A DNA stretch of 64,000 bases, taken from the IMG/VR virus record IMGVR_UViG_3300029922_000014, positions 86,437-150,436 of that record; one strand, given 5' to 3'. Under the pieces are notes generated by a model. That model was not told where the DNA came from, ran no database searches, and was given only the letters and a program-made list of their open reading frames with translations. A program made the position numbers and the translations under genes. Below, piece by piece: positions 15,199-63,992 of this stretch (positions are counted from its first letter, which is position 1; each line of letters opens with the position of its first letter). The stretch is from a virus.

Positions 15199-15284
15199 GG
15201 TCCTTTGGACCGCTGGTTGGTTGTTGTACCCGCATCATGGTGCGGACTGACATCGTGTCAATTGCTGTTTTCCGCGTTATGCGG
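15199..15284 (-). promoter_or_regulatory. Promoter cassette: Box B, -35/Box A, -10, Box C, RBS
   Basis: Box C 15199, -10 CATGAT 15234-15239, Box A 15248, Box B 15272. Confidence 0.8.
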
Positions 15285-15615
15285 AACTTCCGCTGGGATG
15301 ACCGGAACGTTCGCCAGGATTTCGGCCTTGCGCAGCACAATGGCTTCCGCTTCCTGTTCGATGGTGTCGGTGATCAGCTTGGCGAGGTCCTGGAGGGTGT
15401 TGACCTTGACCGTGCGACGGTCGAGCGCCTTGATCAGCTTGGACACGACGGTTTCGCGCAGAAGCAAGCCACGATGCCCGGCACGCAGGGCGGGTTCGGT
15501 GGCGGCTTTGGCGCTGGTATATAATCACCGCCGGTGGGCTTGATCGCGTGCAGGGCGTTGCGGAACTTGTCCTGGACGGTGATCGGAGTCTTGTGCATGG
15601 CCATTGGATGCTCCT

Positions 15616-15696
15616 GGTCCATTGGACCGTTGGCGTTATGGCTGCATCCTGACATGGATTGACACGATGTCAATCGAGACTTTCCGCGTAACGCGC
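15616..15696 (-). promoter_or_regulatory. Promoter cassette (B-A-C)
   Basis: Box C 15616, -10 CAGGAT 15646-15651, Box A 15660, Box B 15684. Confidence 0.8.
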
Positions 15697-15784
15697 GTTT
15701 TCCGTGCCTTGAGCACCTTGGCGTACGCAGGACAGAGGTCGGATACAATCGAGCCTGGAAACGCCTTACAGGTGCCAGTAAACG

Positions 15785-15935
15785 GCAAACCCGACCCCAA
15801 CAAGGGATCGGGTCTGGCGTGTTCGCCCGCGGTGCACTTTCACAGGGGAGGGGGGAACTCCAGCCGAAAAGATCAACGCGCTGCCCAAAGGAAGGAGTGC
15901 ACGGGGGGACGTGCGGGCAGTGGCAGAACGGTAAG
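15785..15935 (-). ncRNA. Candidate structured small RNA with C-rich/anti-SD single-stranded segments
   Basis: TTGACA 15968-15963 and CAAGAT upstream; CUGCCC/GGGCAG and GCACG/CGUGC stems; terminator-like hairpin 15789-15813; no convincing ORF. Confidence 0.5.
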
Positions 15936-15971
15936 CGCGCATCTTGCGCACTACGCAGAGTCTGTCAACGG

Positions 15972-16721
15972 TCAGGTGTGGCCGGGCGGATTGATCGGAT
16001 CAAGTGGTATGGGGAGCTTCGGAGGGCGCAGGATTATACTCCCGTAGTTCGGTCCTGGACCGTTACCAGTCTGCAAAAGGATCGTCGATGCGGCCATGTG
16101 CCGACCGTTGCCGCTGTGGTCGGTGAGGTCGCGGGCGGTGGGTAGTGGCCAATAGGCGTATGGACTGCCAATGATGGGCGGGTTCGAGTTGGCTTCCGCA
16201 ACCAATTGGGTCGGGGTCATGGCGACCTGCCAAATCTTGACCGATTCGAGACTACCGACGAACTGCGCATGTGCGGTCGACGAGAACAACACGATGCGAT
16301 CGAACGGGAAGCGGTTGCGGACATCCAGAAGCTGCAAGCTCAATTGCCCGTCGAAGTAGTAACTGCTGAGGGAACCATCGGAGATGAACCCCCAGTGATG
16401 CCAGCGTGTGTCGAGGCTTGGCCACTGCCCCGTAGTCTGGATGCGGTCACCGACAAAGAGTTCAGGAGTCAGGCCGGATTCATCGGATCCCAGGTACAGT
16501 GACTCGGGGCCGCCTTCCGTGCAAATGGCGATGGCGGCGGCGCGCGCGTTGGTGGGCTTCTCCCAACGCACCCACATGGACACTGTCAGAGGTCCGGTCC
16601 CTGGCCCTGCCTGCGGTGACGCGAAAACGCCGCCATAAGGCCATTCCAGGTGGCACTCCCGGAAGATCGCGTTGCCGATCCCCGGGCCGTAACCGATGAC
16701 TGCGATGGTCGTGACGCTCAC
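15972..16721 (-). CDS. LamG/concanavalin A-like jellyroll domain protein
   Basis: LTVSMWVRW, RWHHWGF, YYFDGQL, FVGSLESVKIWQVAMTPTQL, LTDHSGNGRH. Confidence 0.8.
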   Translation of the reverse strand: MSVTTIAVIGYGPGIGNAIFRECHLEWPYGGVFASPQAGPGTGPLTVSMWVRWEKPTNARAAAIAICTEGGPESLYLGSDESGLTPELFVGDRIQTTGQWPSLDTRWHHWGFISDGSLSSYYFDGQLSLQLLDVRNRFPFDRIVLFSSTAHAQFVGSLESVKIWQVAMTPTQLVAEANSNPPIIGSPYAYWPLPTARDLTDHSGNGRHMAASTILLQTGNGPGPNYGSIILRPPKLPIPLDPINPPGHT

Positions 16722-20548: not shown

Positions 20549-21514
20549 CTAACCCTCCATGAGACAGGTGTCAGCGAAGTCCACAGCGAGTTTGACAACA
20601 TCGGCTTCACGTGCAATCACACGCTGCCATTCCAGCGGCAGCGCCTCTGCACCATGGATCCATCCGGACAGCGCGCCGGTAATCGCCGCCGTCGTATCAG
20701 TGTCAGACCCTAAGTTCACTGCGGCCAGGACGCTATGCGCAAATGCTTCGGTACCAACCAGACCCAAGGTCTCTGTCTGGTGCAAGCACCACACTGCGGA
20801 TTCCAGCGAATGGATGCAGTACCCTCCGCTCTGAATGTCCCTGCGCGCGGCAGCGAAAATCGAACCATCCTCAAGGCGAGCAAACTCGCGCTTATCCTCG
20901 GTCCCGAGCAACATGCCGCCGACAGCCATGGCCAACGCTTCGCGAATGCTGCGCCCGTTAGCCAGCGGCGAGAGCATGCGCGCATGCGTAACACACGTAT
21001 AGGTCGAACGGTCGTGGGCGTGCGTCAGGGCGGACCCCTCGCGGGCAAAACGTTCGATATGGTGCGGATTGCTGAAAAGGGCATACACGTTCAAGGGCAT
21101 GCAACGCATCAAGCTGCCATTGCCGTTGCTGCTCAGACTGGTGCCGCCGCACTGACTGGCAGGAAAACCGGCTTTGCGCTTGGCAATCGCTGCGCGCGTC
21201 GCATTTCCACAGTCGAAGTTCACACCGTGGGCGGTCCAAGTCGCATGGTCATACCAGGAAACAAACGAATCCATGACGGCTTCGAGGTCCCAGCCCTTGC
21301 GGACCAGAACGTCAGCGGCGGCCAGGGTCATGGAGGAGTCGTCAGACCACGTCCCAACCGGTTGATTCCAGGTGCCGTGTCCACGCATCTCTTTAATCGG
21401 ATCCGCATCGCGTGCTTCACGGGTGCTGAACTCTGCATAAACCCCAAGAGCGTCGGAAATGCAGGTGCCGATGATCGAACCGATGATGCGCGAGCGAAGG
21501 GTGGGGGTCGACAT
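20549..21514 (-). CDS. ADP-ribosylglycohydrolase (DraG/ARH family)
   Basis: SDALG, GTWSDDSSMT, NGNGSLMR, ALTH, GSDTDTTAAITGAL. Confidence 0.92.
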   Translation of the reverse strand: MSTPTLRSRIIGSIIGTCISDALGVYAEFSTREARDADPIKEMRGHGTWNQPVGTWSDDSSMTLAAADVLVRKGWDLEAVMDSFVSWYDHATWTAHGVNFDCGNATRAAIAKRKAGFPASQCGGTSLSSNGNGSLMRCMPLNVYALFSNPHHIERFAREGSALTHAHDRSTYTCVTHARMLSPLANGRSIREALAMAVGGMLLGTEDKREFARLEDGSIFAAARRDIQSGGYCIHSLESAVWCLHQTETLGLVGTEAFAHSVLAAVNLGSDTDTTAAITGALSGWIHGAEALPLEWQRVIAREADVVKLAVDFADTCLMEG

Positions 21515-21525
21515 GGCAGGCTCCA

Positions 21526-21604
21526 GGTCCGGGGGACCGTTGGGGTATGGCTGCATCATGGCGGGATTGACACGATGTCAATCGCTGTTTTCCGCGTCAT
21601 GCGG
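21526..21604 (-). promoter_or_regulatory. Promoter cassette (B-A-C) driving the ARH gene
   Basis: Box C 21526, CATGAT 21555-21560, Box A 21568, Box B 21592. Confidence 0.8.
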
Positions 21605-22424
21605 AAAGCACCGCATCAGCGACGGGGGACGCCCGGTCCTTGGATCCTGGCGCTCTGGGCCATGTGCTGCTTGAACTGTTCCGACAGCACATCGGCAAAC
21701 TGGCGATTGCCGTCGTTCTGGGCGGTCTGGCAGCAGGGTCCGTAGTAGGCGATGGCCTCGTCGAGGTTGTTCGCGCCGATCAGCGGGAAGTCCAGCATGG
21801 CGTTGGTCTTGCGCACGCGGCCGAGCGGATCCTTGGCCGTCAATTCCATCTGCTGGCGCCCGATGAAGGGGTGGAACTCCAGCGGGAAGATGCCGGTGAT
21901 CACACGGCGATGGATGATGCGCGCCACGGGGCCATAGCCGTAGACGTGCTCCTCGTACGTGAAGGCCTGCGCGAGCCCCGCCAGAGCCTCCAAAGACAGC
22001 CCGGTGCCTTCGGGAGGGGCCGCCGCTTCCGGTGCCGTCTGAGAGGCTTCCTGTGGCTGCACGGGAGCTTCCGGGGCGGTGGTATCGGCGGCGTTCTCGG
22101 TGTTCATGGGGATGCCTTGACTGATGGCTTGTGGTTGATGCGCGGACGGCGCACGGGGGTCTGACGGAGGTTGCGGGATTCGTTGTACTGCCGGATCAGG
22201 TCGACGTAGACATCGACGTTCTCTGCCAGCGTGATGATCGCTTTGCGGATGGCCTTCTCGGACATCGTCTTCGGCATGGTGACGGCGACCTTGATTGGGC
22301 AATTCTCGAAGCTCAGGAAGTCGACAGTGAACGTCGCACCGTCGTCATCACGGACGATGACGCCTGCATCATTTTCCTCTTCAGTCAAGATGGTCTTGTT
22401 CACGGGTTCAGATTGTAGTAAATG

Positions 22425-22994: not shown

Positions 22995-24051
22995 CGGTGT
23001 CCTTAACGGCGAGCGCCACAACGCGCCCGTAGGGGGAGCGGCCAAAACGTCGAGAGACGATCTTGAACGGGGTGCGCCAGAGGAACCATGCCAGGATCCG
23101 TAGTGGGCGGGGGTACATGTCGACGGCGCGGGCAACACCAACCACCTTGAATCCAGGCGGGGCTTTTGGTGCTCCAATGCGCGGTTTCACAGTGCCCTCA
23201 ACTGGTCCAGGCGGAAGAAGTCCGTCTTCCAGGCCGGGGCATTCGTTTGCGGGTCCATGTACGGGATCTTGAGATACACCGCATGCGCCTTGTCGCTGTC
23301 GTAGGTGAAGCTCATGATCGTGCCCAACATACGGAAGCTCAGACTCTTTTCGTCGAGCACACGCATGCGCATGCCAACACGGAGATTCGCGCGGTCGGGA
23401 ATGTCCAGGGTGACGTTCATAGGGATCGAATCTCGCCTTCGCCAGTGGACAGGTATGCTTTTGCGCGTTCCGCTTCAACGGACATTCGGTGCAGGTATGC
23501 CCGTCCGTCCTCCATGCAATAGACCGTAGTGGTGATGCGCCGCCCGGCGCCGGCATCAACGACCAGTCGCCGTTCCTGCGGAAGACAGTTGCACACCGCA
23601 CACAGTTTCTTTTGTGCCGGTGTGACATTTTCGACTTCGATGGAGATTGACCGAAACCATAGCCCCGGCTTGCGGCGGGAGGTCATCAGTTATCGAACCA
23701 TATGACAACCAGAGGATCGCGCGTGAGCTTGCGCGCATCGGCCAGAACCTGAACGAACGACACCTCGTCATCGGATGGATCCGGGGGATCGAAGTGATGA
23801 GGCTCTGCCTGCCTGACCGTGGCCTCAAGCTCATCAGGCGTCAGCGCCTGGATTCCAAAAAAATCGTACTCCATAAAATCTGCAAGCCCATCGACGTAGT
23901 GCCAGTGGTCACGCTCTGCATTGAGAAGGGCAGGAAAAATATTGACGTACCGTGGCAAATGGTAGTCGGAATGCGCCGACGGCCATATGCGAGGATACTT
24001 CCCGTACTCATCTTTCTGGATGAGTTTGATGTTGATGTCAGTGCCCATGGC

Positions 24052-25008
24052 TCAGGAGACCGTAGTGATGCCGACGCGGGTTTCCGGCTTCTCGGATGCA
24101 GCCTGGATACCTTCGACGTAAGCGGCCTCATCGAACGGGACGCCCTGCACGGTGGCGAGTTGCTGGGCGGTCGTAGTGGCGACTTCCTTCCACTTCGGAC
24201 GGCGGCCAGTGGTTTCCTCGACGAAGGGGGCGAAGCGGCCGGGCTCGAAGGACAGGCCCTGGTCGGTGGCGGCCTTGATCTGGATCTGGATGTGCTTGAA
24301 GGCCTTCTCGGCTTCGCCGCGTAGCGCATTCAGCAGGTACGCGGCTTCGAGCGAATCCTGACTGGTGACATCGCCAGGAGCGGCGTTGCCGAGCGCTTCC
24401 AGGACGTTGACGAGATTGGAAACGCTGGCCTCGACGCGCCGGGCCAGGGTCGGCTTCTTGGGTTTGACTGCGGGAACGGTGGCGAGCTTGCGGACGGCCA
24501 TGGCGTATTCCTGGTAATGTGGTGCAACACTGAAGCCCATCCGCCATGACAGCGGATGGGCCAGGAACAGAGCGGATGATCAGACCTTGAACTTTTCCAA
24601 GAGCAGGTTGAAGGCGAAGGCATAGGCCTTGGCCTTGGTTTCCTTGGTCGGGACCAAGCCCTTGATGGCCTTGTACTGGGCGTGGCCTTCGGGGCAGGTC
24701 ACCTTGAGAAGATCCGCGATGTTGTGGGCAAAGAAGTCGACCGCCTTGGCCACCTTCTCCGGAGTGGCACCTTCGGGCATGACGGTGGGATATTTCTCCC
24801 CGTCGGTGGTCTGGGCAGCCGGGACGGTCGCCTTGGCAGCGGTTTTGGCCTTGGCGTCCGCGATGGCGTTGACGGTCGGCATGAAGATGACCTGTTCATC
24901 GGCGGTCATGGGCGCGAAGCCCTTTTCCTGGAGTTTCGCGTTGATTTCCGCGAGGGGCTTGGCCATCTCGACGAGGAGGGTGATGATGTCGGTACGGGTG
25001 GCTTTCAT
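24052..25008 (-). other. Two hypothetical genes (24052-24501, 24580-25008) with a hairpin between them (24535-24562)
   Basis: ORFs with phage-like codon usage; gcccatccgc...gcggatgggc inverted repeat. Confidence 0.6.
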
Positions 25009-25020
25009 GGGAGGCTCCTT

Positions 25021-25100
25021 GGTCCATTGGACCGTTGGTGTGATGAGCGAAGCATATGCGGACTGACATCGTGTCAATGCCTCTTTTCCGCATAGCGCGT
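25021..25100 (-). promoter_or_regulatory. Promoter cassette (B-A-C)
   Basis: Box C 25021, TATGCT 25051-25056, Box A 25064, Box B 25088. Confidence 0.8.
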
Positions 25101-25957
25101 AAAATGCTCTTTAAGCAATGCGGTCCTGGTCCAGCAGAGCAAAAACCACCGGTTCTTGGGTGGTCGGGCAGACAGAATAGAAATTGAAGACACTGGGGCG
25201 GGTAAAACGCCGAGCGAGAAGACCGTGCCGCAAACTGCAACGGGGGCAGGATTCGACGACGATATTTACCGCAGTAAGAGGAATGCGAATAACAAACTCT
25301 TTCTTAGGTTCAGCCGCTGGTTTGGTTGCGGATCCCATCCATCCTTGCAGGCTTCTGCAACGGTGACGGCAAACAGGACAACATCCGAATCTTCAAAGAC
25401 GCGGTTGTCGATGCTCCGAGACAGGATTTTGTAGTCGAGCATCAGACTTCCGCGCGATCAGTGCTTTTTTGCGCGCTCACGCGGATCGGTGGCCTTGACC
25501 GATTCGTCGGCGTGGCCGTCGGTGGTCTTCGGACGGATCACGGGGGCGTTGGTGGCAGCATCATGGCCGCCGACGGAGTCCAGGTCTTCGACGATGGGTC
25601 CGCGGGCGGGCGGTGGGATCTGGCGCTTCTCGTTCATGGGTTCTCCGGGCGACAGTATCCGCGCCATGCGTCAGTGTGCAACGTAGTCGTTGCCGAATAG
25701 CTCGTCGAGCAGCGAACGGTCACCGGTACAGGACCATTCCCGGCACTGATGCGGGGCGGTGCTGTAACACCACACGAAGCCTTCCCGGCCATCGTCGTGC
25801 TGGAACCCCCAGGACGCGCCGACCTTGTCAGCATCGTCCAGGGCAGTCGCATTCGGCATGCCGAGGATGGTGATCAGCGTGCGAAAGTCGGCGGTGATGG
25901 TACCGGTGCGGGATGCGCCGGTCTTCGGGATGGGGTTGATCATGGCGGCAATCGCGC

Positions 25958-26497
25958 TCACAGCAGCACCGGTTCCAGGCCAAAATCCGCGTCATCAGAA
26001 GGGGACGCGTCCAGCACGATCTTCCGCTTGCGGCGGTTCTTCCTGCCCTTGTCCGCGCGCGGGGTCTGTTCGTGATCGAACCAGGAACCGTACAGCCCGG
26101 AACCGGGGTGCAGAGCCTGCTGCAAGGCGTTTCCGAGCCCCCAAACCTTGTGGAGGAGGTCCAGGTACCCTTTGCGCTCCGGAATGTCCTTGGCGCGTTC
26201 TTTGGCGGCGTCCTTGAAGTTGGAATAGTCGATGGCCTCCGCGAGGTGCGACATGACCAGCATCAGTTCGACCTTGGTGACGAAGATGCGGAAGGCGTAA
26301 TCGCGGCCGGGGATCTCGTGGATCTCGCGACCATCGAGCAAAGGGACAACGCGGATGAGCGTGACCATGCTTTCGAGGGTGCGCGCACGGATGACGCGTT
26401 CGTCGGGAGACGCCCGGGTGAAGGACACCTTGCCGCGGGTGATGGTCTCTTTCTCAGCGACGACTGAGAACATCCCGAAAGTCGTTAGAACCCACAT
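25958..26497 (-). CDS. Hypothetical phage protein
   Basis: MWVLTTFGMFSVV...IRAR...RDYAFR...IDYSNFKD; AAGGAG RBS. Confidence 0.7.
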   Translation of the reverse strand: MWVLTTFGMFSVVAEKETITRGKVSFTRASPDERVIRARTLESMVTLIRVVPLLDGREIHEIPGRDYAFRIFVTKVELMLVMSHLAEAIDYSNFKDAAKERAKDIPERKGYLDLLHKVWGLGNALQQALHPGSGLYGSWFDHEQTPRADKGRKNRRKRKIVLDASPSDDADFGLEPVLL

Positions 26498-26509
26498 TTT
26501 TGACTCCTT

Positions 26510-26587
26510 GGTCCTTTGGACCGTTGGTGTGATGAGCAAAGCGTATACAGACTGACACGATGTCAATCAAGTTTCTGCATAGCGCGG
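26510..26587 (-). promoter_or_regulatory. Promoter cassette (B-A-C)
   Basis: Box C 26510, TACGCT 26540-26545, Box A 26553, Box B 26575. Confidence 0.8.
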
Positions 26588-27142
26588 CAAATGCCGATAA
26601 GTTTGACCGCGACGGATGTATTCGATCACATCGCGTGACACTCCGTACGTTTGGGCTAACGCTGTGATCGAATCAGCAGAAGCAATGATCTCCGCAGCCT
26701 GCGCATTGGTCAGGAGCGCTTTGCAATGCTCCTCGCCCCAGGGCATGCGCCCGTTGCGTATAGCATCAGCAGCATTGGCCGCCTGTGTGTCGTATCGCAA
26801 ATTGTCTAGACGGTTGTCAAATGGGTTGTCGTTCGCGTGGCACATGACCGCCCTGGAAGGGCGCGGGCCGACAAACGCCCGTAGAACAATCAGCCCAACC
26901 GGCCTGACGAGTCTATTTGCGCGCCCGTTACGCAAATTGCAAATCGGAATCGCGCGACGCCTGTACCCAACCCGTGCAACAGTCAATTTCAGTTCAGCCG
27001 GCTCCTGATCCAGTTCGATCGTCGAAGTCCTGAACCCCTGGTGCTTGAACGAAAACACACGCCCGTGATCAGTAACGTAATAACCGTCCCAGCCCACAAC
27101 CGGAAGCTGGTGCTCACCATCTCGAAGATGAGCAATCCACAT
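26567..27142 (-). CDS. NUMOD4-type HNH homing endonuclease
   Basis: GWDGYYVTDHGRVFS, LRAFVGPRP, CHANDNPFDNRLDNLRYDTQAAN. Confidence 0.88.
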   Translation of the reverse strand: MWIAHLRDGEHQLPVVGWDGYYVTDHGRVFSFKHQGFRTSTIELDQEPAELKLTVARVGYRRRAIPICNLRNGRANRLVRPVGLIVLRAFVGPRPSRAVMCHANDNPFDNRLDNLRYDTQAANAADAIRNGRMPWGEEHCKALLTNAQAAEIIASADSITALAQTYGVSRDVIEYIRRGQTYRHLPRYAET

Positions 27143-27153
27143 ATAAGACTCCT

Positions 27154-27233
27154 GGTCCAGGGGACCGCTGGTGATGGGGGGTCATCATGCACGGACTGAC
27201 ACGATGTCAATCGCTGTTTTCCGCGTCACGCGG
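27154..27233 (-). promoter_or_regulatory. Promoter cassette (B-A-C) driving the HNH gene
   Basis: Box C 27154, CATGAT 27184-27189, Box A 27197, Box B 27221. Confidence 0.8.
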
Positions 27234-27738
27234 GAAGCGGGTAACTGGCGCGGTCGGCGTTCCGGATCAGGTTGCAACGCATGACGTACAGCGCCATTTC
27301 CATGTCGCGGCGGTTTGGGCGACTCGGGCGCGGCTTGGAACGCCGCCCGCCTGCCCGACGGTGGTTCTTCATGTACTGGCTCAATATCTTGCCGCAGACG
27401 TCCCAGTCGGGGATGGTCTCGCGGGCGACGCGCATCTGCCATTGGTAGTTGGCGTAAAAGGCCACGTGTGCGCAAGACGGTGCACCGTACTCGACGCGCA
27501 GTTCGTTCTTGCACGGACGCGGACCGAATTGCCCGAATCCCGGAATGGTCACCGGTCGGCCGAGCACTACCTGTTCCATGATCGCTTCGCACAGATAAGT
27601 CAGCGCGATGCCCATCTCGTATTCGTTCTTGCCGGAGGCGCGGGCGGCTTGAACCAGCGCATCCCCAAGCCCGTCGATTGGATTCGAGCGGACGCTGGTG
27701 ATGCGGGTGGTATTGTTCTGTGGAATGCCTTTGGGCAT
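27226..27738 (-). CDS. HU/IHF-like DNA-binding protein
   Basis: EAIMEQVVLGRPVTIPGFGQF. Confidence 0.6.
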   Translation of the reverse strand: MPKGIPQNNTTRITSVRSNPIDGLGDALVQAARASGKNEYEMGIALTYLCEAIMEQVVLGRPVTIPGFGQFGPRPCKNELRVEYGAPSCAHVAFYANYQWQMRVARETIPDWDVCGKILSQYMKNHRRAGGRRSKPRPSRPNRRDMEMALYVMRCNLIRNADRASYPLPA

Positions 27739-27740: not shown

Positions 27741-30700
27741 CTACGCCTTCTTGGCGCGGAGTGTTTCCAAGTCTTCGTTCAACTGCTTGCGCTCTTCGGA
27801 ATCTTCGATGCCGTCGGTGATGTCCTGACCCATCCACAGCGGGGGCAGGGTCGACGGGTCGGTCTGCTGCACGATCTGATCGTCCAGGTGTGCTTCTGCG
27901 ATGTCACCGATGATCTTGCGCAGCGCAGGGGAACGGTGGATCGACTCGGCAATGCGCTTCTTCTCCCCTGACGACAGGCAGTAGTAGCCTTCGGTACCAG
28001 TCATGCGCGCCGCTTCCAGAATAGCCTTCTGATTCGTCAGCGACTCCTCAGGCGTGTTTCCGCCGCCCGTCACACTGGTAGCTTCGGGACCGGCCACCTC
28101 TTTCGAGAGCAGACGCAAGACGACGTCTTCGGGAAGCTTGGCGTATTGGGTGAGGATGTAGACGCTCCACACCTTGGGATTCACGCCGAGGGTCTGGCCA
28201 AACTGGGCCATCGCACCCATGAGTTCGCTGCGAAGCTGAATCAATTCGAGGCGTTCGAGTTCGTCGAGGTAGGAGCTTGGCGGGACGCAAACGAGGTAAC
28301 GGTTCTCTTCGGCGGTGGGATCGTAGTCGGAGTTTCCGACGGCGAGCAGGGTGTAATGGATGTCGAGGGTCTGACGGATGCCGTATTTGTAGGCCTTCTG
28401 AATGCGTTTGATGGTGCGGGCAAAGCGCACATCCTGCTGGAGCAGGGTAGCTTTTGCGTTGACATCCCCTTCAAAGCCGATATAGGCAGCCGGAATCTTC
28501 GCCACACCGCAGAAGATTTTCCGGTTCATGTCCACGTCTTGGATCTCACCGGCATTGCCAGCACCAGACATCGGTTCGATGCGCGTTTCGGAGTCGGCAC
28601 CGCGCACAGGCAGGAAGACATCTTCCCACGGGGTCAGGGGATTGAATTGTTTCCTGTAATTGGGGCTCGCCGGGTCAATATACTCGTTCTTCCGAAAGGC
28701 TTTCTTAAATTGATTCACGTAGTCCATCGCCTCGGACTCTTCCATATTACCAACATCAACAAGCACCATGTTACGGTCTGGCGCACGGCGAAGGCGATAC
28801 ATAAGCACAGCATCCATGCTCAGCGTATTGTGTGAAACAACGCCATTAGCAACGAAGTTGTGAAGATCGTCGGCAACGGTGATGTCATACGTCTCCCCTT
28901 CCCCTATAGGCTCGACGTGCGTTACAGGTTCGTAGACAACAGGAGCATCAGTCGCCTCGTCACTGACAAAAATACGGAATGCGCGCAGCGCCTTGGCGCG
29001 CTTTCCGCGAATTGTGGTCTCCCTGTCGATTGACTTGATCTCGCGACTGACTCTGTATCCCGACATCTGCGCCAACGTCCAGCAGCCCCGCATCAGTTCT
29101 TCGTTGGAAAGCCCAAGACGCCAACCGTTGCTCTGGAAACCTGCGTCGGCATCAAACATCCCTTGCAAGAAAGCACGCCGCACTTCCAGAGACATCCCAT
29201 AAAGCCACGACGGAACACGCTTCTTCGCAAAACCGTGAATGAAACCAACAGATTCCAACATGCGCTTAATCCCAAGCCCGAGAACCTGCACATGCCCGGC
29301 GCCGAGCGCATTGAAGGTTGCCGCCCCCCGAGGCTCTGGGGTGCAATTGAACAATTCACGACACAGGTCGATGTAGTAGGTGTTGCAGCCATCGTCCTCG
29401 CCCAACGCAAATGCGATGCCTTTCGACTCGAACCATCCGTCGCCAAGCATGAAGCCGAGAAACCGTGCAAAGCGCGCATCGACTTCAAAAGAAAGCGTAT
29501 CCAGGTCAACCCCGTGCACCGGATTTTTCCCTGTGCGAACCACAAGATCAACCGGAGGAACATCAATACCGGCAGCGCGCAAGCGCAGATAGTTCGCATG
29601 TGATATGCCGTTCTTGCCACGCAAAAAGGCATGCGCAACCTTCTGAATATGCTTATGTCCGACGAGTTGGGCGGAACGCAGCTTATCCATAATCCCAGGA
29701 GGGGTTTCGACAGGCCCGCGCGGGAGCACTGACCATGCATCACCACTCAGCGTAAACCTCCGCGTAGCGTCCCCATCAACCAAACGAGGGAGCACAAGCG
29801 AATCACGATCCCGATAGGCAGGCCAAACCGTCCGATCGGGCGCCGCGACCAGATGATCGGCACGCTTGTAGAGAAAGTTGCCGTCCTTGTCGCGCGCCAA
29901 CATCCCATGATTGGCAGTAACGACAATCTGCCGATGCGCGGTCCGAATCCGAACCAGCTTCTGCACACCCTGCTTCAAGACCGCAACAATCTCTGTCTTC
30001 CGCGTCTCACCCGTAGCCGGGTCGTGAGCGTAAGTGACCTGTCCACGACAAACACTCTCGGCTGTCGTGGGGCCGTCAGTGGTCCAGATAAGAGTTCCGG
30101 CAGCGATGCAATAGGTGCGCCACGGGTTGAACCACGTGTCGAGCAGCGCCGTGCCGTATCCAGTCTCTTCGTCTTTGCCGAGCAGGCGGAAATGCGTGTA
30201 GTCCCAGGGCCAGGAGGTCGCGCGTTTGCCGTTGCGAAACTGGACGCCGTCCTGACGGAATCCGACGAGGCGGCCGTATTTGTCCTCGACGCGGTGCATC
30301 TTGTCGGTGCGGCAGTACTTCCACCCGATGACACCTTTTCCAGCTTGGTAGATGTTGCGCTGGAAGCCATCGCCCATCTTGCACATGCGCCGGACCAGCG
30401 GGGTGCCGCGGTCTTCGATCATGATGTTGTGCAGGCATTCGTTGCCCGCCTTGATCATCTTCTCGTTCTTCGATTCGATCCAGACGTGGCGCCCACGTTC
30501 ATGGTCGGGCTGGGTGGCCTCTTCCGCGTAGATGTCGAGGAAGCTCGACACCATGCCGCTGCCATCCATCTCCTCGAAGATGCGGTAGCGTTCGAGCCTG
30601 GACCCGGCGATGTGGAAGAGGCGGCGCCACCATTCCTGCGCCTGTTCTTCCGCGTCACTGCGCTGTTCACCGTCGGTGTCGTATTGGGTAGCGTGGGTCT

Positions 30701-30812
30701 GCTTGTCGTACAGCCCGAGCAAACGCCAGTACCACGCCTGCTTGTGCGGGGTTCCGACCAGTTCGGACTGACCGTTTGTCGAACCTACGGGAGAATCGGG
30801 CATCTGCGGCAT
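27741..30812 (-). CDS. Portal protein (T4 gp20-like) with intein
   Basis: DAVLMYRLRRAPDRNMVLVDVGNM, EDVFLPVRG, KIPAAYIG, QQDVRFARTIKRIQ. Confidence 0.9.
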   Translation of the reverse strand: MPQMPDSPVGSTNGQSELVGTPHKQAWYWRLLGLYDKQTHATQYDTDGEQRSDAEEQAQEWWRRLFHIAGSRLERYRIFEEMDGSGMVSSFLDIYAEEATQPDHERGRHVWIESKNEKMIKAGNECLHNIMIEDRGTPLVRRMCKMGDGFQRNIYQAGKGVIGWKYCRTDKMHRVEDKYGRLVGFRQDGVQFRNGKRATSWPWDYTHFRLLGKDEETGYGTALLDTWFNPWRTYCIAAGTLIWTTDGPTTAESVCRGQVTYAHDPATGETRKTEIVAVLKQGVQKLVRIRTAHRQIVVTANHGMLARDKDGNFLYKRADHLVAAPDRTVWPAYRDRDSLVLPRLVDGDATRRFTLSGDAWSVLPRGPVETPPGIMDKLRSAQLVGHKHIQKVAHAFLRGKNGISHANYLRLRAAGIDVPPVDLVVRTGKNPVHGVDLDTLSFEVDARFARFLGFMLGDGWFESKGIAFALGEDDGCNTYYIDLCRELFNCTPEPRGAATFNALGAGHVQVLGLGIKRMLESVGFIHGFAKKRVPSWLYGMSLEVRRAFLQGMFDADAGFQSNGWRLGLSNEELMRGCWTLAQMSGYRVSREIKSIDRETTIRGKRAKALRAFRIFVSDEATDAPVVYEPVTHVEPIGEGETYDITVADDLHNFVANGVVSHNTLSMDAVLMYRLRRAPDRNMVLVDVGNMEESEAMDYVNQFKKAFRKNEYIDPASPNYRKQFNPLTPWEDVFLPVRGADSETRIEPMSGAGNAGEIQDVDMNRKIFCGVAKIPAAYIGFEGDVNAKATLLQQDVRFARTIKRIQKAYKYGIRQTLDIHYTLLAVGNSDYDPTAEENRYLVCVPPSSYLDELERLELIQLRSELMGAMAQFGQTLGVNPKVWSVYILTQYAKLPEDVVLRLLSKEVAGPEATSVTGGGNTPEESLTNQKAILEAARMTGTEGYYCLSSGEKKRIAESIHRSPALRKIIGDIAEAHLDDQIVQQTDPSTLPPLWMGQDITDGIEDSEERKQLNEDLETLRAKKA
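28827..30110 (-). mobile_element. Intein (428 aa) with LAGLIDADG endonuclease, in the portal
   Basis: Y|CIAAGT start; block B VTANH; LGFMLGDG and FLQGMFDADA; TYDITV..HNFVANGVVSHN|T end. Confidence 0.92.
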
Positions 30813-42969: not shown

Positions 42970-43018
42970 ACTGTACGCGGATTGACATCGTGTCAATCGG
43001 ATTTGCCGCGTTACGCGG
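42970..43018 (-). promoter_or_regulatory. Promoter of the ParB-like gene, with Box A and Box B
   Basis: TTGACA 42996-42991, 15 bp, TACAGT 42975-42970; Box A 42983; Box B 43006. Confidence 0.8.
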
Positions 43019-45970: not shown

Positions 45971-46495
45971 TCAGGTTGTTTGTTCACGTTCGCGGCTCAC
46001 CAGTCGTTTCAGGACCCAGAGGCGGTTCCGTAGTGCGTCCGATGTTTCGCGTAGGACACCATATTGCCGTCGTTCTGAGTTCAAGTTCTTTCTCGCGGCA
46101 GCAACGGGATCATCAATGTCCAAGCATGCGCGCACGTGATGATCGCTGATGCGCATCCCGCCATTTTGTGTCGAACCTGCTTCGTCCTCAAGATACGTGC
46201 GAAAGGTGAGGAAGGCTTTTCCTTCAACTTCTGCCAATTTTCGCTCGCATTCACGCACTTTTGCAAGTTGCTGTTCTGCCTGATACGCCCAGAAGGCAAT
46301 CCGCTCCGGCGCATTGGTAAACTCTTCGATCATTTCGTCGGGATCGTCCGGGATGCGCAGTTCAGCGCGCAGATTGAAGGTGGCGACGGTGCCATTCTCC
46401 AACGTGATCTTGATCGCAGCGGTGGAAGCAAGGTAGTGCTCCCCGTGTTTTGCCGGAAGTCTTTTCACTTTTTCTTCATCTTGAACACAAGGCAC
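45971..46495 (-). CDS. Possible UvsY-like recombination mediator
   Basis: Coiled-coil protein next to the SSB-like gene and recA; start uncertain. Confidence 0.35.
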   Translation of the reverse strand: MPCVQDEEKVKRLPAKHGEHYLASTAAIKITLENGTVATFNLRAELRIPDDPDEMIEEFTNAPERIAFWAYQAEQQLAKVRECERKLAEVEGKAFLTFRTYLEDEAGSTQNGGMRISDHHVRACLDIDDPVAAARKNLNSERRQYGVLRETSDALRNRLWVLKRLVSREREQTT

Positions 46496-49400: not shown

Positions 49401-50478
49401 GCTGACGGTCGAACTTTTCGTTCTGTCCGATCCAGTCGATCTCCGCCTGGAACAGATCGCGCAGGAGTTCGATCAATTCCGCACGCTCATGCTCCAGTGG
49501 GCCGCCAACACACCACGGGCTTTCGGAATGATCGAATGGGACCACATAGGCGGTATTGTCGCCGTTGGAAAAGCTGAAGCACACGAGTTTTGGGAACTTG
49601 TCCTGGTATATTTGCAATGATCCGGTTTCGGTATCGACGGAAACCGGGCGTCCCCAGGTCTTGAACTTCTCGAAGGTCTCCTTCACAACTGACATCGTGT
49701 CAATCGTGATATAGGTTCCGAACCCGGGTTTGCTCAGGTCCTCGCCAGCGAACAATCCCAGCGCCACGGTGATGGCGTTGGTGAAGCGGGTCATCTCATG
49801 ATCAAAGCGGAGCACGTAGGCCGGGTGCAGGCAGGCCACCACAGGGATGCCTTCGAGTTCCGGATGGCTGCCCTTGAGCGGTTGCCCGTTGAGGTGGCTG
49901 ATCCCAGAGGTATCCGTCAGAAACTCCAGCGGCGTGTTGCCCAACGCCAGGATGACCTTCGGCTTTCGGTCGACGATCTGCTGGATGAGTTGATGCGAAC
50001 AGCTTTGGACTTCCGTCTTGGCCGGCGAGCGATTCATCGGTGGCCGGCAGTTGACGACGTTGGCAAATCCGATCCGTAGTTCACCGACCTGCGCCTGCTC
50101 TGCACACATGTCGATCGCTTCACGCAAGAGCTTGCCTGAGCGCCCAACAAACGGCAGCCCTTGCCGGTCTTCGTCCTGGCCGGGAGCTTCACCAACACAC
50201 AGGATGTCCACCTCGGTCTGGTCTTCGACCACGTTCCGGGACTGGATCAGATGCCCTTCCTTGGCTGCTGCGCGGATCTTTATTGCATCGCGCTGGTAGA
50301 CGGCCTCGAAGTCAGGAAAGTCTTCGTGAAAGGCTGCCAGGGGGCAATGCAGACACCCCGATTTGAGCACGCCAGTGCATGGTGGAACAAGCGGTCTGGC
50401 GCCTGGGCGGAGTTCGGCTTTCCCGCGCGTGTCGATGAGCGCCTGCGCAACGCGATCTGCAAGACGACGAACAGCCAT
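46465..50478 (-). CDS. polA: Family A DNA polymerase with N-terminal family-4 UDG domain, 3'-5' exonuclease and intein
   Basis: UDG GEAPG, PFVGRSG, NCRPP.NR, HPAY; Exo DTET, YAAMD; Pol TATGRLSSSDPNLQNI, DFSQIELR, R...K..NFG..YG, LTVHDS. Confidence 0.95.
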   Translation of the reverse strand: MAVRRLADRVAQALIDTRGKAELRPGARPLVPPCTGVLKSGCLHCPLAAFHEDFPDFEAVYQRDAIKIRAAAKEGHLIQSRNVVEDQTEVDILCVGEAPGQDEDRQGLPFVGRSGKLLREAIDMCAEQAQVGELRIGFANVVNCRPPMNRSPAKTEVQSCSHQLIQQIVDRKPKVILALGNTPLEFLTDTSGISHLNGQPLKGSHPELEGIPVVACLHPAYVLRFDHEMTRFTNAITVALGLFAGEDLSKPGFGTYITIDTMSVVKETFEKFKTWGRPVSVDTETGSLQIYQDKFPKLVCFSFSNGDNTAYVVPFDHSESPWCVGGPLEHERAELIELLRDLFQAEIDWIGQNEKFDRQHIREAIGIELPIFKTDTMTTHLVINEQRGTHGLDKLAYQYTGMGGYDRPLEDYKAAHPEADPKKGGSYANIPGSILFTYAAMDADVTWRVAPLLFQEPEYRDNPRLRILAEQFFPHLSAALADMETAGAKIDPEAVDRIDKRLTEEIERLDKAIQEDASVKQYVDEKMQREAEKDVATGKRRRKPFAFEFNPNSGKQVGEIFFGLLGYPPGELTETGSKNLRYRLRQRQDECRANGTRFPKMDDMRREAIEAQEWSYFTTDAETMHSFERDHDSELATLILSSREAIKLQGTFINALKTMCDKFGLLHSSFWISGTATGRLSSSDPNLQNISNNPRWNIKTCYVSRFGDDGILLNCDFSQIELRIAACLFDEPKMKQVYLERGDLHTLTASIVSGVPVEEFAKLDKDTKKKMRTSAKRTNFGCVPLDTEALTRDGWRGYGQIKVGDEVLGMENGVTKWVPVTGIVYHPVAKVVTLATKNFSMETTEDHRWMAEKRVVVAGKRKMVPCIVSTADIKHEHRIFLSAPIQSTCLLPISVYEAALVAWLFTDGHFFFSELTGAASQGRDGWRQKHFGGVYQSKPAGVAALKELFSHFPHTLHVRPVTDIHEFRLRSGYTHDLWKRAELHSITLEEFVLRLGTAELRAFVEAAFQAEGHLDHKGTRIVTQNRGPTADALKLAIFLAGYFPREVESDTYKDNVSLKLRYGKPVVTGQRLKKTGERETAVWCLQTATSNWVMRHRNQIMVTGNSLYGSEAPGIRSALKKDGIFVSLEDCEKFLENFFKGFPRLRAGMDELERKVTKLGYLDSFTGHRRRVPEVGSSDPSLVSRAVRQSINFPIQSGAAIMTLMALVLITRALKNGGFKSKLILTVHDSIMFDCVLDEYLAVAILAKDIMENLPALSDEVLPGLDWNWIDIPIIAEVEAGLNWGQMQEFEPADLQDGKTSDQPLIGLNEKGKMDILRKPVNEDELGQCLVFKMKKK
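47164..48135 (-). mobile_element. Intein (324 aa) in PolA motif B
   Basis: NFG|CVPLDTE start; TEDHRW; WLFTDG and AFQAEG LAGLIDADG-like; VWCLQT..MVTGN|S end. Confidence 0.9.
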
Positions 50479-53257: not shown

Positions 53258-53405
53258 GATGTTTTCCTTGCAGCCCGGGTACAGGGTTTGGTTTGGTCCC
53301 GGTTGGTTACTGCGCCGTCAAGGTTACGAAGGGTTTTTCCCCATTGCAAGCTGTTTTTTCCGCGTCATGCGGGAAGTTCCGTGTGGGAACTGACACGATG
53401 TCAGT

Positions 53406-58572: not shown

Positions 58573-58645
58573 CGGATGGACCGGTGTTTGTAATCACTTC
58601 CGGCCAGTGTCAACATCCGACTTTGTGCGCTATGCAGAAAAGCGG

Positions 58646-60960: not shown

Positions 60961-60971
60961 CAGAGGGCGGC

Positions 60972-62723
60972 TCATGACTCGAAGTACCGCCGGATGTACC
61001 CCCGCTTGTCGATCGCGGAGATGTACCCGCACATGATCTGGAGACGCATCTTTTCCCTCCGCCGCCGGGCTTCGATGTTCTCGACCGGGATCATCTCGGT
61101 GATGGCCCCGGCGAAGAACTCCGGCTTGACCTTGGTCGTCTTGCCGCGGAAGACCGCACCCAGTTCCAAGATGCCCGCGTCGCGCAGCGTCTTGAGCGCC
61201 GAACTGACCGCGGTCTGGCTCAGGCTGCATGCCAGCCCCAGCGCGTCACGATCGACCAGGAAGTCGACGATGCGCGGACGCTCGCCAGCCTGAACGCCTT
61301 CAGCACCGATCACCACAGGCGCGACGGCTTCAGCGTCATAGCGCGCGCAGAGGTTGGTCAGCACCGCCATCTTGCTTTCGCTGAGTTCCGCCTGGGCCAA
61401 GGCGAGCTTGCCCTTGTCACCGACGAAGGACACGGTCAGGCCGGCATCACAGGCACGGCGTTCGATGATCTGGTAGCTGTCCATGGTGTGCAGGGCGCCG
61501 AGCACCTGTTCCGGCGGCAGTGTCAGGTTCATCGTCCGGGCGATCTCAATCGAGATGGTCTCGCCGGTCAGCGAGATGGTTTCCCCGAACTCATGCACGG
61601 TGGTCAACCATTTCCACACGACCTGGAAGGCGGTGTAGGGCGGGTTGCCGTTGTCGATGAACTTCTGGCGCATGTCGACGGCGTATTCGTCGTGGATCAG
61701 GATCACCGTCGATGGTTTGCCATCGCGCCCCGCCCGCCCGGCCTCCTGGCAATAGTCCTCCAAGCAGCCAGGGATGCCAAAGTGGCAGACGGTCCGGATG
61801 TCGGGGATGTCGATCCCCATGCCGAAAGCATTGGTGGCGACGACGGTGGTGAAGAGACCGCGCTTGAACTTGTCCTGCGTCTCCTCGCGTTCGAGCTTGT
61901 TCATGCCGGCGTGATAGACCCCGACCTTGTGGCGCATCGTGGGGTTCTGGCGGACGATGTCCTCTGCAAGGTTTTCACACTTCTTGCGCGTGCCGCCATA
62001 GATGATGTGTCGGCCTTCGCCGGTGATGTACGACTTGGCGTACCGGGAGAAGTTGTGGTTGGGGTTGCCGTTCCAGACGACGTAGTCGAGGTTCGGCCGG
62101 ACGGGGTCGCCCACCACGCGACGATAATCACCCATGCCGAGCGACTTGACGATGTCGCCTTCGATTTCCTTGGTCGCAGTCGCGGTGACAGCAATAATGC
62201 GGGCGCCCCCTTGAATGGACGCCTTGATCTGGCCGATGCGCATATACGCCGGACGAAAATCATGTCCGTTTCTGGATATGCAGTGAACTTCGTCCACAAC
62301 CAGAAAGTTGATGGGGGTGACGTCGACGGCGTCGCGGAAGCGATGACTGTCCAAACGCTCTGGCGACACGTAGAAGACTTTGTATTCGCCATAGCGGAAG
62401 TTGTTCAGGCGATCTTCGATCTCGGACTCGTCGAGCGAGGAGTTGATGAAGCTCGCCGGAATCTTGCGCTTGTGGCAGTCTTCGACCTGATCCTTCATCA
62501 AGGCGATCAGTGGGCTGACCACGATTGCGGTTCCGGGATAGAGAAGAGCAGCGATCTGGAAGATGGCCGACTTGCCATTCGCGGTCGGCAAGATCGCCAG
62601 GAGGTCAAGTCCTGCGATGATTGCTTCGAGCGATTCTTCCTGCGCTTTTCGGAGCGTGTCGAAGCCCCAGTGTTTTTGGAGCAGCACCAGGGCGTCGTCC
62701 ATGGTTGGTTGATGATCGGTCAT
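60972..62723 (-). CDS. recQ: RecQ-family helicase
   Basis: LQKHWGFDTLRKAQ, PTANGKS, SPLIALMKDQV, VDEVHCIS..GHDFRP.Y, ATNAFGMGID, QEAGRAGRDG. Confidence 0.93.
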   Translation of the reverse strand: MTDHQPTMDDALVLLQKHWGFDTLRKAQEESLEAIIAGLDLLAILPTANGKSAIFQIAALLYPGTAIVVSPLIALMKDQVEDCHKRKIPASFINSSLDESEIEDRLNNFRYGEYKVFYVSPERLDSHRFRDAVDVTPINFLVVDEVHCISRNGHDFRPAYMRIGQIKASIQGGARIIAVTATATKEIEGDIVKSLGMGDYRRVVGDPVRPNLDYVVWNGNPNHNFSRYAKSYITGEGRHIIYGGTRKKCENLAEDIVRQNPTMRHKVGVYHAGMNKLEREETQDKFKRGLFTTVVATNAFGMGIDIPDIRTVCHFGIPGCLEDYCQEAGRAGRDGKPSTVILIHDEYAVDMRQKFIDNGNPPYTAFQVVWKWLTTVHEFGETISLTGETISIEIARTMNLTLPPEQVLGALHTMDSYQIIERRACDAGLTVSFVGDKGKLALAQAELSESKMAVLTNLCARYDAEAVAPVVIGAEGVQAGERPRIVDFLVDRDALGLACSLSQTAVSSALKTLRDAGILELGAVFRGKTTKVKPEFFAGAITEMIPVENIEARRRREKMRLQIMCGYISAIDKRGYIRRYFES

Positions 62724-63039
62724 GACACAGGGTCCTTTGGCTTGTCGCCGTTGGTTGGTTTGGGCTGAGAGTGTATATCCCGCGTCACGCGGACAATCGT
62801 TGTTTTGACGTCAGAAAACGATGCAGTCGCCGCGAAGGCAGCGCCAACCATACCAGGGACCATTGTACCGGCTCATGCGACGCTTACCGCAAGCGCAAAC
62901 TGCCCGCCGCCGTTCACCGTAGCGCGGCTGTTTGTACCTCCGCGGGTTGAAGACCTGGAAGCGGGGCATCCGGTCGACCATCTCTTCGTATTGGCGCAAA
63001 AGGCTGTTCGGGAAAACCGTGTTCATGATTGACGCCGTG

Positions 63040-63702
63040 TCAGTTCGGGGTGCTGAGGATGAGGGTCACGACGCGGTCATATCCCGCTTCGTTGAGGTGG
63101 ATGCCAGCCGGTTGGCTGTATTGCGGATCGCACCAGCCCGACGGCAGCACCACCGCTGGCCATAGGTTGAGCCACTGCGCGTTGCGCCCGTTGGCCACGT
63201 CTTGCAGTTGCGCCGTCAGGGTGCCAAAGTCCGCCGGTCCCAAGTTGTTTCCCGTCGCCCACGGATACTGAGGGGCGAGCGGCATCGGGGACAGGCAGAT
63301 GACCGTCGTTGCGCCCTTTGCGCGTACGGTGTCGATGAGTGTTCCATACTCGGCCATCGTCACATCGCGAGGCGTTCTGGTCTGAAGATCGTTGATTCCG
63401 CACCAAAGGTACACCGTCGGCGGGAGGCTGGGCTGCGCCTGCACGCGAGCAAGGACCATGGCGACGGTATCGCCTCCGACGCCAAGATTCTCTGCCCCTG
63501 GGAGCCACGTTTGCCACGCCCCCAGATAGACATAGCTGTCACCGATGACCGCCTTGGTCGTCGGGTTGGGAACCGAGTCATCGTGAGCGTCATAGGTCGT
63601 CGGGAACGCCGCTGCCCCGGGAGCGTGGTACGGTTCGTGATGGAGTCCACCGTATCCGCAGCCGGCGAGCATGATGATGGCGATGGTGAGGATGAAGCGC
63701 AT
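63040..63702 (-). CDS. SGNH/GDSL hydrolase lipoprotein
   Basis: Lipobox LAGC; GDSY, NLGVGGDT, GIND, GIHLNEAGY. Confidence 0.85.
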   Translation of the reverse strand: MRFILTIAIIMLAGCGYGGLHHEPYHAPGAAAFPTTYDAHDDSVPNPTTKAVIGDSYVYLGAWQTWLPGAENLGVGGDTVAMVLARVQAQPSLPPTVYLWCGINDLQTRTPRDVTMAEYGTLIDTVRAKGATTVICLSPMPLAPQYPWATGNNLGPADFGTLTAQLQDVANGRNAQWLNLWPAVVLPSGWCDPQYSQPAGIHLNEAGYDRVVTLILSTPN

Positions 63703-63913
63703 GGCGTGTTCCTTTGGAACGTCGAGTGGAAGGGGGCTGAAGGGCAGGATCAACGGGCGGTGGCCATTTCCTCTGCACACGCTTCGACGAAGGTCAGGAA
63801 CTCGGGATCGTTCAGGGCGACGAAGGCGACTTCGTATTGCGCGCAGAACTGACGGACCAGGAAACCGATTTCCGCGTTGGTATGGGTCTTGAAGAGGTTC
63901 ATGGCTGACTCCG

Positions 63914-63992
63914 GGTCCGTGGGACCATTGGGGTATGGCGGCCAGCGTACCCGGATTGACACGATGTCAATCCTATTTCCTGCATGACGCGG
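63914..63992 (-). promoter_or_regulatory. Promoter cassette (B-A-C)
   Basis: Box C 63914, TACGCT 63944-63949, Box A 63957, Box B 63980. Confidence 0.8.

Follow-up and report, generated by a model that had tools for sequence, protein, structure and literature searches.

The DNA considered here, referred to as the window, is a stretch of 64,000 nucleotides corresponding to bases 86437-150436 of one 150,436-bp virus record (IMG/VR record IMGVR_UViG_3300029922_000014). Its minus strand carries a repeated promoter cassette built from three palindromic elements, designated Box B, Box A, and Box C in the order in which they are read. The ends of the genome share a 127-bp overlap, the record is rated as complete by CheckV, and its long codon-biased open reading frames (ORFs) are all located on the minus strand. 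The encoded proteins include a T4-type portal protein with an intein, a large terminase (TerL), a sheath protein and baseplate proteins, and the phage is an uncultured myovirus of about 150 kb with all genes on one strand. Further gene products are a UDG-PolA fusion as well as RecA-like, DnaB-like, SbcC/Mre11-like, and ParB-like proteins. The encoded helix-turn-helix (HTH) proteins comprise two of the XRE type, one of the GerE type and one of the MerR type in addition to ParB, and an HU-like protein is also present.

Megablast and tblastn searches against cultured phages revealed no near relative, the best cultured TerL match being 32% identical. There is a large family of metagenomic relatives of 140-157 kb with a common gene order and TerL identities of 42-54%, and none of the relatives searched was closer than about 55% protein identity. 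A search of the phage for tyrosine integrases gave no match, and the phage appears lytic. Likewise, no matches were obtained with the RegA and RegB families, in a phmmer comparison of a 1072-aa early protein with the PDB, or in an Rfam scan of the window.

Cassette layout and promoter core

Full cassettes are present seven times in the window and ten times (unique copies) in the whole genome, where they form two clusters at genome positions 101.6-113.7 kb and 0-8.2 kb. The last cassette of the window, at 63914, corresponds to genome position 41, because the record ends overlap by 127 bp. The cassettes of the window are composed as follows.

15184-15287, minus strand: full cassette 1, with Box B at 15269-15287, Box A/-35 at 15248-15261, Box C at 15199-15211, GGAG, and ATG at 15186
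15602-15699, minus strand: full cassette 2, with a degenerate Box B at 15681-15699, Box A at 15660-15672, Box C at 15616-15628, and ATG at 15604
21512-21607, minus strand: full cassette 3, with a perfect Box B at 21589-21607, Box A at 21568-21580, -10 CATGAT at 21555-21560, Box C at 21526-21538, and ATG at 21514
25006-25103, minus strand: full cassette 4, with Box B at 25085-25103, Box A at 25064-25076, -10 TATGCT at 25051-25056, Box C at 25021-25033, and ATG at 25008
26495-26590, minus strand: full cassette 5, with Box B at 26572-26590, Box A at 26553-26565, -10 TACGCT at 26540-26545, Box C at 26510-26522, and ATG at 26497
27140-27236, minus strand: full cassette 6, with Box B at 27218-27236, Box A at 27197-27209, -10 CATGAT at 27184-27189, Box C at 27154-27166, and ATG at 27142
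63900-63995, minus strand: full cassette 7, with Box B at 63977-63995, Box A at 63957-63969, -10 TACGCT at 63944-63949, Box C at 63914-63926, and ATG at 63902

The Box C motif GGTCC-N3-GGACC occurs at exactly the seven window positions given in a preliminary description of this DNA, compared to an expectation of 0.12, and none of 100 shuffled sequences reached seven copies. Reading the minus strand bears out the order proposed there, namely Box B, an A-tract, TTGACA within Box A, a -10-like hexamer, Box C, GGAG, and ATG, and the start distances between Boxes A and B (22-24 bp) and between Boxes C and A (42-49 bp) are also as described. At the end of every cassette, GGAG is followed by the start ATG of an ORF. 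Cassette 1 shows a -10-like CATGAT near 15235-15240 at a 16-nt spacer, and the TGA of its Box A is the stop codon of a small upstream ORF. Cassette 3 precedes a gene for an ADP-ribosylglycohydrolase (20549-21514; Pfam PF03747, 1.9e-62), cassette 6 precedes an HNH endonuclease gene, and a promoter is present at the positions of cassettes 4 and 5 in syntenic regions of relatives. Additional promoters and elements carrying subsets or variants of the boxes, together with two genes of importance for the further discussion, are listed below.

42970-43021, minus strand: promoter with Boxes B and A but without Box C, directly upstream of the ParB-like gene, with other hairpins in the leader before the Shine-Dalgarno sequence (SD)
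40628-40680, minus strand: promoter with Boxes B and A but without Box C
11154-11206, minus strand: B-only promoter, with Box B at 11188-11206, TTGACG at 11175-11180, a 15-nt spacer, and TACGCT
58587-58640, minus strand: promoter with a B-like site (4 mismatches) and TTGACA-N15-TACAAA, upstream of a helicase gene
53357-53375, minus strand: Box B copy followed by a TTGCAA-type -35, with a Box A copy just upstream at 53391-53403
62780-62792, minus strand: Box B core without mismatches, preceding a DEAD-box helicase gene and followed by the remnant of a decayed Box C
63708-63720, minus strand: Box C variant with compensating changes (GTTCC-AAA-GGAAC), located between two genes and 5 nt ahead of the ATG of gene 63040-63702
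26567-27142, minus strand: HNH homing-endonuclease gene (Pfam HNH_3; PHROG HNH endonuclease, 1e-27), flanked by cassettes 6 and 5
41709-42899, minus strand: ParB-like gene (ParB_N PF02195, 54.5 bits; HTH_ParB PF17762, 30.1 bits; both above cut-off)

The two promoters described as carrying Boxes A and B only (40641 and 42983) are real, whereas the sites listed as carrying Box B alone proved to be a mixed group. Positions 11175 and 58608 are the -35 hexamers of promoters with a B-like site and without Box A, and 62791 represents an exact B core, but only a distant half-site of Box B is present at 8685, and 15963 shows TTGACA with no recognizable Box B. The region around 8685-8930 is rich in promoters and also contains a perfect 43-bp direct repeat (window 8723-8765 and 8815-8857, 92 bp apart). 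The 5-3-5 geometry assumed to be common to all three boxes turned out to be superficial, since Box B has a 9-1-9 structure and the palindrome of Box A continues outwards to give GGAYTGACA-N3-TGTCARTCC. Scans of IMG/VR, JGI metagenomes, and GTDB genomes with composite A-C and B-A patterns returned nothing or chance matches in unrelated low-GC DNA.

All 17 matches to the pattern TTGAC[AG]-N15-[TC]AnnnT are on the coding strand, and other spacer lengths yield 0-5 matches, although the two strands hardly differ in their number of TTGACA hexamers (47 and 51 copies) because of the palindromes. The -35 hexamer TTGACA is perfect in all ten full cassettes and in most B-only promoters, and the -10 hexamer reads TAnnnT or CAnnnT behind a spacer of 15 nt. 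The same spacer is present in the relatives L006 and L007, and a built-in scan for spacers of 16-18 nt finds only one of these promoters. A conserved CA follows 6-8 nt (about 7 nt) past the -10 hexamer and is the likely start of transcription as judged from its position. Moreover, relatives with TerL identities of 42-51% have promoters at the corresponding intergenic positions upstream of orthologous genes, as seen for a 179-aa "MW..FS" gene, a 142-aa gene, and parB. Both the sequence statistics and the conserved positions in relatives lend good support to the promoter reading of the preliminary description.

Searching the phage for sigma70 region 2 gave no match, nor did a search for T7-type RNA polymerases (PF00940), in which the positive controls were not detected either, and the large proteins gave no polymerase hits. 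Since neither a sigma factor nor a T7-type RNA polymerase was detected, we infer that the host RNA polymerase is the default reader of these promoters. The only strong sigma70-like promoter of the late gene block (genome 43083, minus strand; TTGACG-N15-TATAAT) lacks Box B and precedes a second free-standing HNH endonuclease gene.

The leader palindrome and the spread of the cassettes

All ten genome copies of Box C are located in cassettes, with AGGAG following within 0-2 nt. The stem is invariant in these copies, the loop and flanks vary, and the element appears as the centroid hairpin in seven of seven folds. Two variants are changed in both arms, replacing a G-C pair by A-U and U-A, respectively: GATCC...GGATC before AGGAG-ATG at a B-type promoter (genome 79417-79429) and the GTTCC...GGAAC listed above at 63708-63720. 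In an alignment of 12 Box C sequences, 60 of 60 cells pair, and the covariation score is reached by 3 of 500 shuffles. No uncompensated variant was found in an SD-adjacent context. Another variant at window 23778-23790 was set aside because it appears inside a coding region, and counts of the arm motif GGWCC are ordinary, which speaks against its general avoidance or enrichment. The orthologous leaders of the relatives L012, L034, L030, and L008 carry GC-rich hairpins of unrelated sequence, and those at 17221 in L012 and 16881 in L034 have similar flanks but different stems, each of which is internally complementary. Box C is thus most likely a transcribed RNA stem-loop abutting the Shine-Dalgarno sequence, and its invariant stem in ten copies suggests that a sequence-specific reader exists in addition. 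With the predicted start, the hairpin would begin at about +12 and not within a few nucleotides of the 5' end, as would be expected of a classical 5'-terminal mRNA stabilizer.

The preliminary description had interpreted the boxes as a combinatorial code of three operators. The combinatorial part of this proposal stands, because subsets of the boxes define the promoter classes B only, B+A, and B+A+C, but the three elements are not equivalent: Box B has the properties of a 19-bp duplex site, Box A is a genome-wide palindrome, and Box C behaves as an RNA hairpin. In its strict form, the proposal implies that each box is a DNA operator with a phage repressor or activator of its own, Box C serving as a downstream operator or roadblock at +11 to +23. 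This would agree with the perfect or near-perfect palindromes at fixed positions, with the invariant arms and variable loop of Box C, as expected for a dimer that does not touch the centre, and with the number of encoded HTH and related proteins (two XRE, GerE, MerR, HU-like, and ParB). However, Box C variants compensate in both arms, one of them resides between operon genes away from any promoter, uncompensated variants next to the SD were not found, and the orthologous leaders of relatives keep the hairpin rather than the sequence. We therefore regard three DNA operators as an unlikely explanation, although it is the strongest of the alternatives.

A self-comparison of the genome shows the cassettes as dispersed repeats of 40-78 bp with 87-95% identity and unique DNA in between. 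Their upstream and downstream halves have partly different nearest neighbors, and the linkers between the boxes have diverged while the boxes are intact. The genes driven by the cassettes are mostly ORFans. As judged from tblastn synteny, the HNH endonuclease gene has no counterpart in five relatives, in which the slot after the portal-adjacent 170-aa gene contains either a gene of 287-339 aa or nothing; in the phage studied here, the same slot is occupied by the HNH gene and a cassette belonging to it, after which comes the cassette of the adjacent gene, which is conserved. This single case would agree with a promoter-plus-gene module having been inserted at a cassette, in the way suggested for the promoter-early stem-loop (PeSL) cassettes of T4-type phages (PMC2839356, PMC4122927). 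The other cassettes are located at positions conserved in relatives.

It may be asked whether the cassettes are mainly mobile modules of the PeSL kind, whose uniformity reflects recent copying or gene conversion and whose homology patches shuffle genes, without any need for separate binding factors. The short dispersed repeats, the mixed neighborhoods of their halves, the cassette-bracketed HNH gene in a slot that varies across the five relatives and the prevalence of ORFans all point in this direction. Yet divergence has affected the linkers and spared the boxes, and Box B and promoter positions are kept at about 50% protein identity, i.e., over times far exceeding recent copying. Neither circles nor deletion junctions were observed, the relatives available for comparison having at most about 55% protein identity. 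We consider this explanation improbable, somewhat more so than three operators.

A perfect 38-bp direct repeat (window 12503-12540 and 15985-16022) flanks a 3.5-kb segment holding cassettes 1 and 2. One of its copies lies just upstream of a TnpB gene (OrfB_IS605 plus Cas12f1-like TNB; window 11258-12475), which contains an in-frame copy of Box A at 11906.

The two upstream palindromes

The core of Box B, CCGCR-N3-YGCGG, occurs eight times in the window compared to 1.25 expected copies, and further copies with 1-4 mismatches are present. Alignment of 22 copies reveals a 19-bp 9-1-9 palindrome, TTTCCGCRT-N-AYGCGGAAA, in which the mirror conservation extends up to the single central base, with T10/A12 paired in 16 of 22 copies. 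The positions R9 and Y13 vary independently in the two arms (A.C in 9, G.C in 6, and G.T in 6 of the 22 copies), and mismatches in the arms are uncompensated. The centre of Box B is located 15-18 nt, mostly 17 nt, upstream of the first T of the -35 hexamer, i.e., at about -50. The element accompanies 22 early or middle promoters, which represent nearly every sigma70-like promoter in the genome segments 62-150 kb and 0-8 kb, and no copy is found at any promoter of the 54-kb late structural block (8.2-62.5 kb).

In the relatives L006, L012 (GC content 49.5%), L034, and L030, Box B likewise occurs with a spacing of 17 nt, and its core alone is found in L008 and L011. L007 and G005 appear to lack Box B, and G005 has its own 21-bp palindrome and no Box B promoters. 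An exact pattern search yields 0-3 sites in each of the whole records of five relatives and six in this phage, indicating that most copies are degenerate everywhere.

A hairpin is not to be expected in Box B, since its lone central base cannot form a loop and a hairpin would not tolerate the independent variation of R9 and Y13; the element is most likely a duplex DNA site for a dimeric protein reading two identical half-sites, with a possible additional role of its A-tract as a proximal UP-like element. An RNA hairpin formed in read-through transcripts, acting as terminator or insulator of a PeSL-type composite, might still be considered because Box B lies directly upstream of the -35 region, like the stem-loop of PeSLs (PMC4122927), and because TTTCCGC and GCGGAAA could pair as a 7-bp stem with a 5-nt loop. 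Apart from the uncompensated arm mismatches, this is contradicted by the conserved T10 and A12, which flank a single base and cannot pair in a hairpin, and by the lack of a 3' U-run, the T-run being 5' and the A-run 3' on both strands; we consider such a function very improbable.

Among the candidate binders, the HU-like and ParB-like proteins are conserved in relatives. A host factor is possible but less likely, because the GC content, and presumably the host, differs among the phages that keep Box B. The GerE-like protein is encoded by a stand-alone 69-aa GerE/LuxR-type HTH gene (genome 73000-73209) behind a B-type promoter, with a copy of Box A just upstream, and its homologs in databases are generic bacterial LuxR-type proteins rather than members of this phage family.

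Box A (TGACA-N3-TGTCA) is found 23 times in the window compared to 0.04 expected copies, and the genome-wide list contains 51 copies, 50 of which are unique (one lies in the terminal overlap). Only 14 of the listed copies (13 unique) are located at a -35 position, the remainder at gene ends or inside genes. The copies are spread more evenly than by random placement (coefficient of variation of the spacing 0.54 versus 0.97; largest gap 6.4 kb versus 13.5 kb; P<5e-5), and the palindrome may be regarded as tiling the chromosome. At least 11 copies at gene ends contribute the TGA with which the preceding gene stops, the 12 copies inside genes are all in the frame GAC-AYS-RTG-TCA, and some copies contain the start codon itself. 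A function as sense-strand promoter at gene junctions was discarded, because no -10 hexamer is present 15 nt downstream.

A tile palindrome of this kind is found throughout the family, with a lineage-specific sequence. TGACA is kept in several relatives, L007 contains TGACC/GGTCA with the TGA as stop codon in five of seven copies, L030 contains TGACG/CGTCA, and G005 carries 17 copies of CCAGTGACA-N3-TGTCACTGG; the tiles of L045 and L032 read GATTTACGC-N-GCGTAAATC and GATTAAACG-N-CGTTTAATC, respectively. The gene-junction palindromes of G005, L045, L032, L030, and L007 often keep GAT...ATC flanks and the TGA stop codon, and their copy number ranges from about 5 to 51 across genomes. At an orthologous promoter of L030 and L034, a B-like site is followed by the respective tile of the phage as -35 (TGACG-N3-CGTCA in L030), indicating that the design of Box B plus tile as -35 persists despite changes in the tile sequence.

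The tile is present at the parB promoter of L006 and L007 as well as at that of the phage studied here, and a gene with ParB_N and HTH_ParB domains is conserved across relatives. This ParB/KorB-like protein is the leading candidate for binding Box A. Repression would be expected at the Box A promoters, because a bound protein would cover the -35 hexamer.

The least probable explanation, to which we give hardly any weight, takes the 5-3-5 palindromes as DNA hairpins which, as in N4, are extruded and serve as promoters for an RNA polymerase encoded by the phage: stems of 5-7 bp with a 3-nt loop would fit, as would the next start codon at several junctions 18-33 nt after the beginning of Box A (for a start about 11 nt from the loop centre), but no T7/N4-type polymerase domain was detected (in the search whose controls gave no match either), no sigma region 2 was found, the large proteins of unknown function have no polymerase hits, and twelve copies of Box A lie inside genes and some contain a start codon.

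Some further observations relate to Box A and the genes around it. In two late intergenic regions (genome 47435-47485 and 24977-25026), Box A copies occur as pairs 37-38 bp apart, and one of the paired copies is extended to a perfect palindrome with 12-bp arms, GGCGGACTGACA-TCG-TGTCAGTCCGCC. A copy at 49690 lies in frame at the boundary between the UDG and exonuclease domains of the UDG-PolA fusion (window 46465-50478), which comprises 1337 aa compared to about 1011 aa in a relative and thus probably carries an insertion, as does the portal gene (window 27741-30812), whose intein separates two blocks matched by relatives (30087-30803 and 27759-28826). At window 136-309 (genome 86572-86745, minus strand), a weak match to an RF-1/GGQ domain (25 bits, under the Pfam cut-off) contains one internal TAG; it could represent a release or rescue factor similar to ArfB, encoded by a genome in which the TGA of the palindrome terminates many genes.

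Proposed model and related systems

Taken together, we consider it probable, with some reserve, that the cassettes are copies of a modular early-gene expression unit. Its core would be a host sigma70-type promoter consisting of TTGACA, 15 nt, and TAnnnT, with a start at CA about 7 nt after the -10 hexamer, to which three add-ons are attached that would work at two levels, Boxes B and A on DNA and Box C on RNA. Box B at about -50 would bind a dimeric protein at early and middle promoters. The left arm of Box A supplies the -35 hexamer, and a protein docked there would occlude it and shut off this subset of promoters. Box C, transcribed at about +12 to +24, would form an RNA hairpin of 5 bp and 3 nt directly 5' of AGGAG and act on the mRNA via stability, processing, or ribosome access. 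The resulting gene classes consist of replication helicases and regulators (B only), parB and two others (B+A), and ten accessory early units (B+A+C), which include the ADP-ribosylglycohydrolase, the HNH endonuclease, a helicase, and several ORFans. The motifs, their spacing and strand specificity, their conservation and the covariation of Box C are observed directly, and it is from these that promoter activity, transcription starts, protein assignments, and the direction of regulation are predicted.

A more specific version of this model would see the B+A+C genes as a doubly marked immediate-early regulon, in which a ParB-type clamp on the tile switches the promoters off, a phage factor, proposed to be a RegB-like nuclease or a translational repressor, reads the GGUCC-N3-GGACC hairpin and clears the mRNAs, and Box B docks an RNA polymerase adapter that is conserved in the family and enables the use of 15-nt spacers. 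The conjunction of all these assumptions is speculative, and we consider it doubtful as a whole.

Several points weigh against the modular unit as outlined above. With their weak -10 hexamers and a spacer of 15 nt, which is atypical for E. coli-type sigma70, the promoters may depend on a factor or on another sigma. The folding z-scores of Box C are not significant (the sequences being short), the covariation test suffers from ascertainment bias because the compensated variants were found by a palindrome search, and the invariant stem with a varying loop would also fit a sequence-specific reader, possibly acting on DNA. The connection between ParB and Box A is circumstantial, as the residues of the ParB recognition helix do not track the tile motif among relatives. 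Moreover, a likeness to the Noc site TATTTCCC-GGGAAATA (PMC7383237) is seen in the outer TTTCC...GGAAA of Box B, and the reverse assignment, with ParB binding Box B instead of Box A, is therefore conceivable. Finally, the GerE-like protein and the MerR-like protein (genome 63384-63956) had to be rejected as conserved binders of Box B, because neither has homologs in five relatives, two of which are near-complete.

Several known systems share features with the cassettes. Like PeSLs, these are short conserved composites on a near-consensus sigma70 early promoter, which are repeated upstream of small genes of accessory or ORFan type and, in one clear case, border a variable slot. The analogy to PeSLs drawn in the preliminary description is partly supported by the short dispersed repeats and by the two copies bracketing the HNH gene in a slot that differs among relatives, but it does not extend to Box B, which is a 19-bp 9-1-9 palindrome of the duplex type with uncompensated arms and no U-run and thus not a terminator-like stem-loop. 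Further differences are the embedding of the -35 hexamer in a genome-wide palindrome and the leader hairpin abutting the SD.

The stoperators of cluster A mycobacteriophages (gp71 of L5) are 13-bp sites present in many copies at promoters and gene junctions, where they often overlap stop and start codons; they are asymmetric sites of a temperate immunity repressor, all in one orientation. Box A is also a many-copy 13-bp site at promoters and gene junctions, but it is symmetric, and no integrase or obvious immunity module was found in the phage.

The kor regulon of the IncP-1 plasmid RK2 consists of KorB with its OB operators and of KorA, KorC, and TrbA (PMC11790492, PMC13584720). It resembles the system described here in the presence of a ParB-family HTH protein, in a multi-copy palindrome located at promoters (next to or over the -35 region) as well as far away from them, and in the combination of different palindromic sites per promoter into regulatory classes. 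It differs in belonging to a plasmid rather than to a lytic-looking phage in which no integrase was found, and in having 12 sites compared to 51 evenly spaced ones; in the phage, the second site is at -50 and not over the -10 region, no KorA-like partner was identified, and binding to the sites is putative. Palindromic sites of ParB-family proteins scattered along a chromosome are also known as the NBS of Noc and the parS of ParB (PMC7383237). Despite the likeness of the outer half-sites of Box B to the NBS consensus, NBS and parS are 16-bp sites with abutting half-sites, while Box B has its arms separated by an additional 9 bp, and Box A shows no sequence likeness to either.

As judged from these sequence comparisons, the cassettes represent a variation on phage early-promoter cassettes and on multi-operator regulons of the RK2 type (PMC11790492), both of which are known designs. 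They would allow a phage to assign its genes to regulatory classes in a tidy manner for which there are precedents. For a phage family known only from metagenomes, they provide a testable regulatory map of 22 promoters with three classes of add-ons, in which the conserved 19-bp Box B is a site in search of its protein and a palindrome tiling the chromosome is directly linked to promoter control. If a ParB-type protein binds Box A, this would be the first place to measure the effect of such a clamp on phage transcription, and the compact modular parts could serve as regulatory parts for GC-rich hosts.

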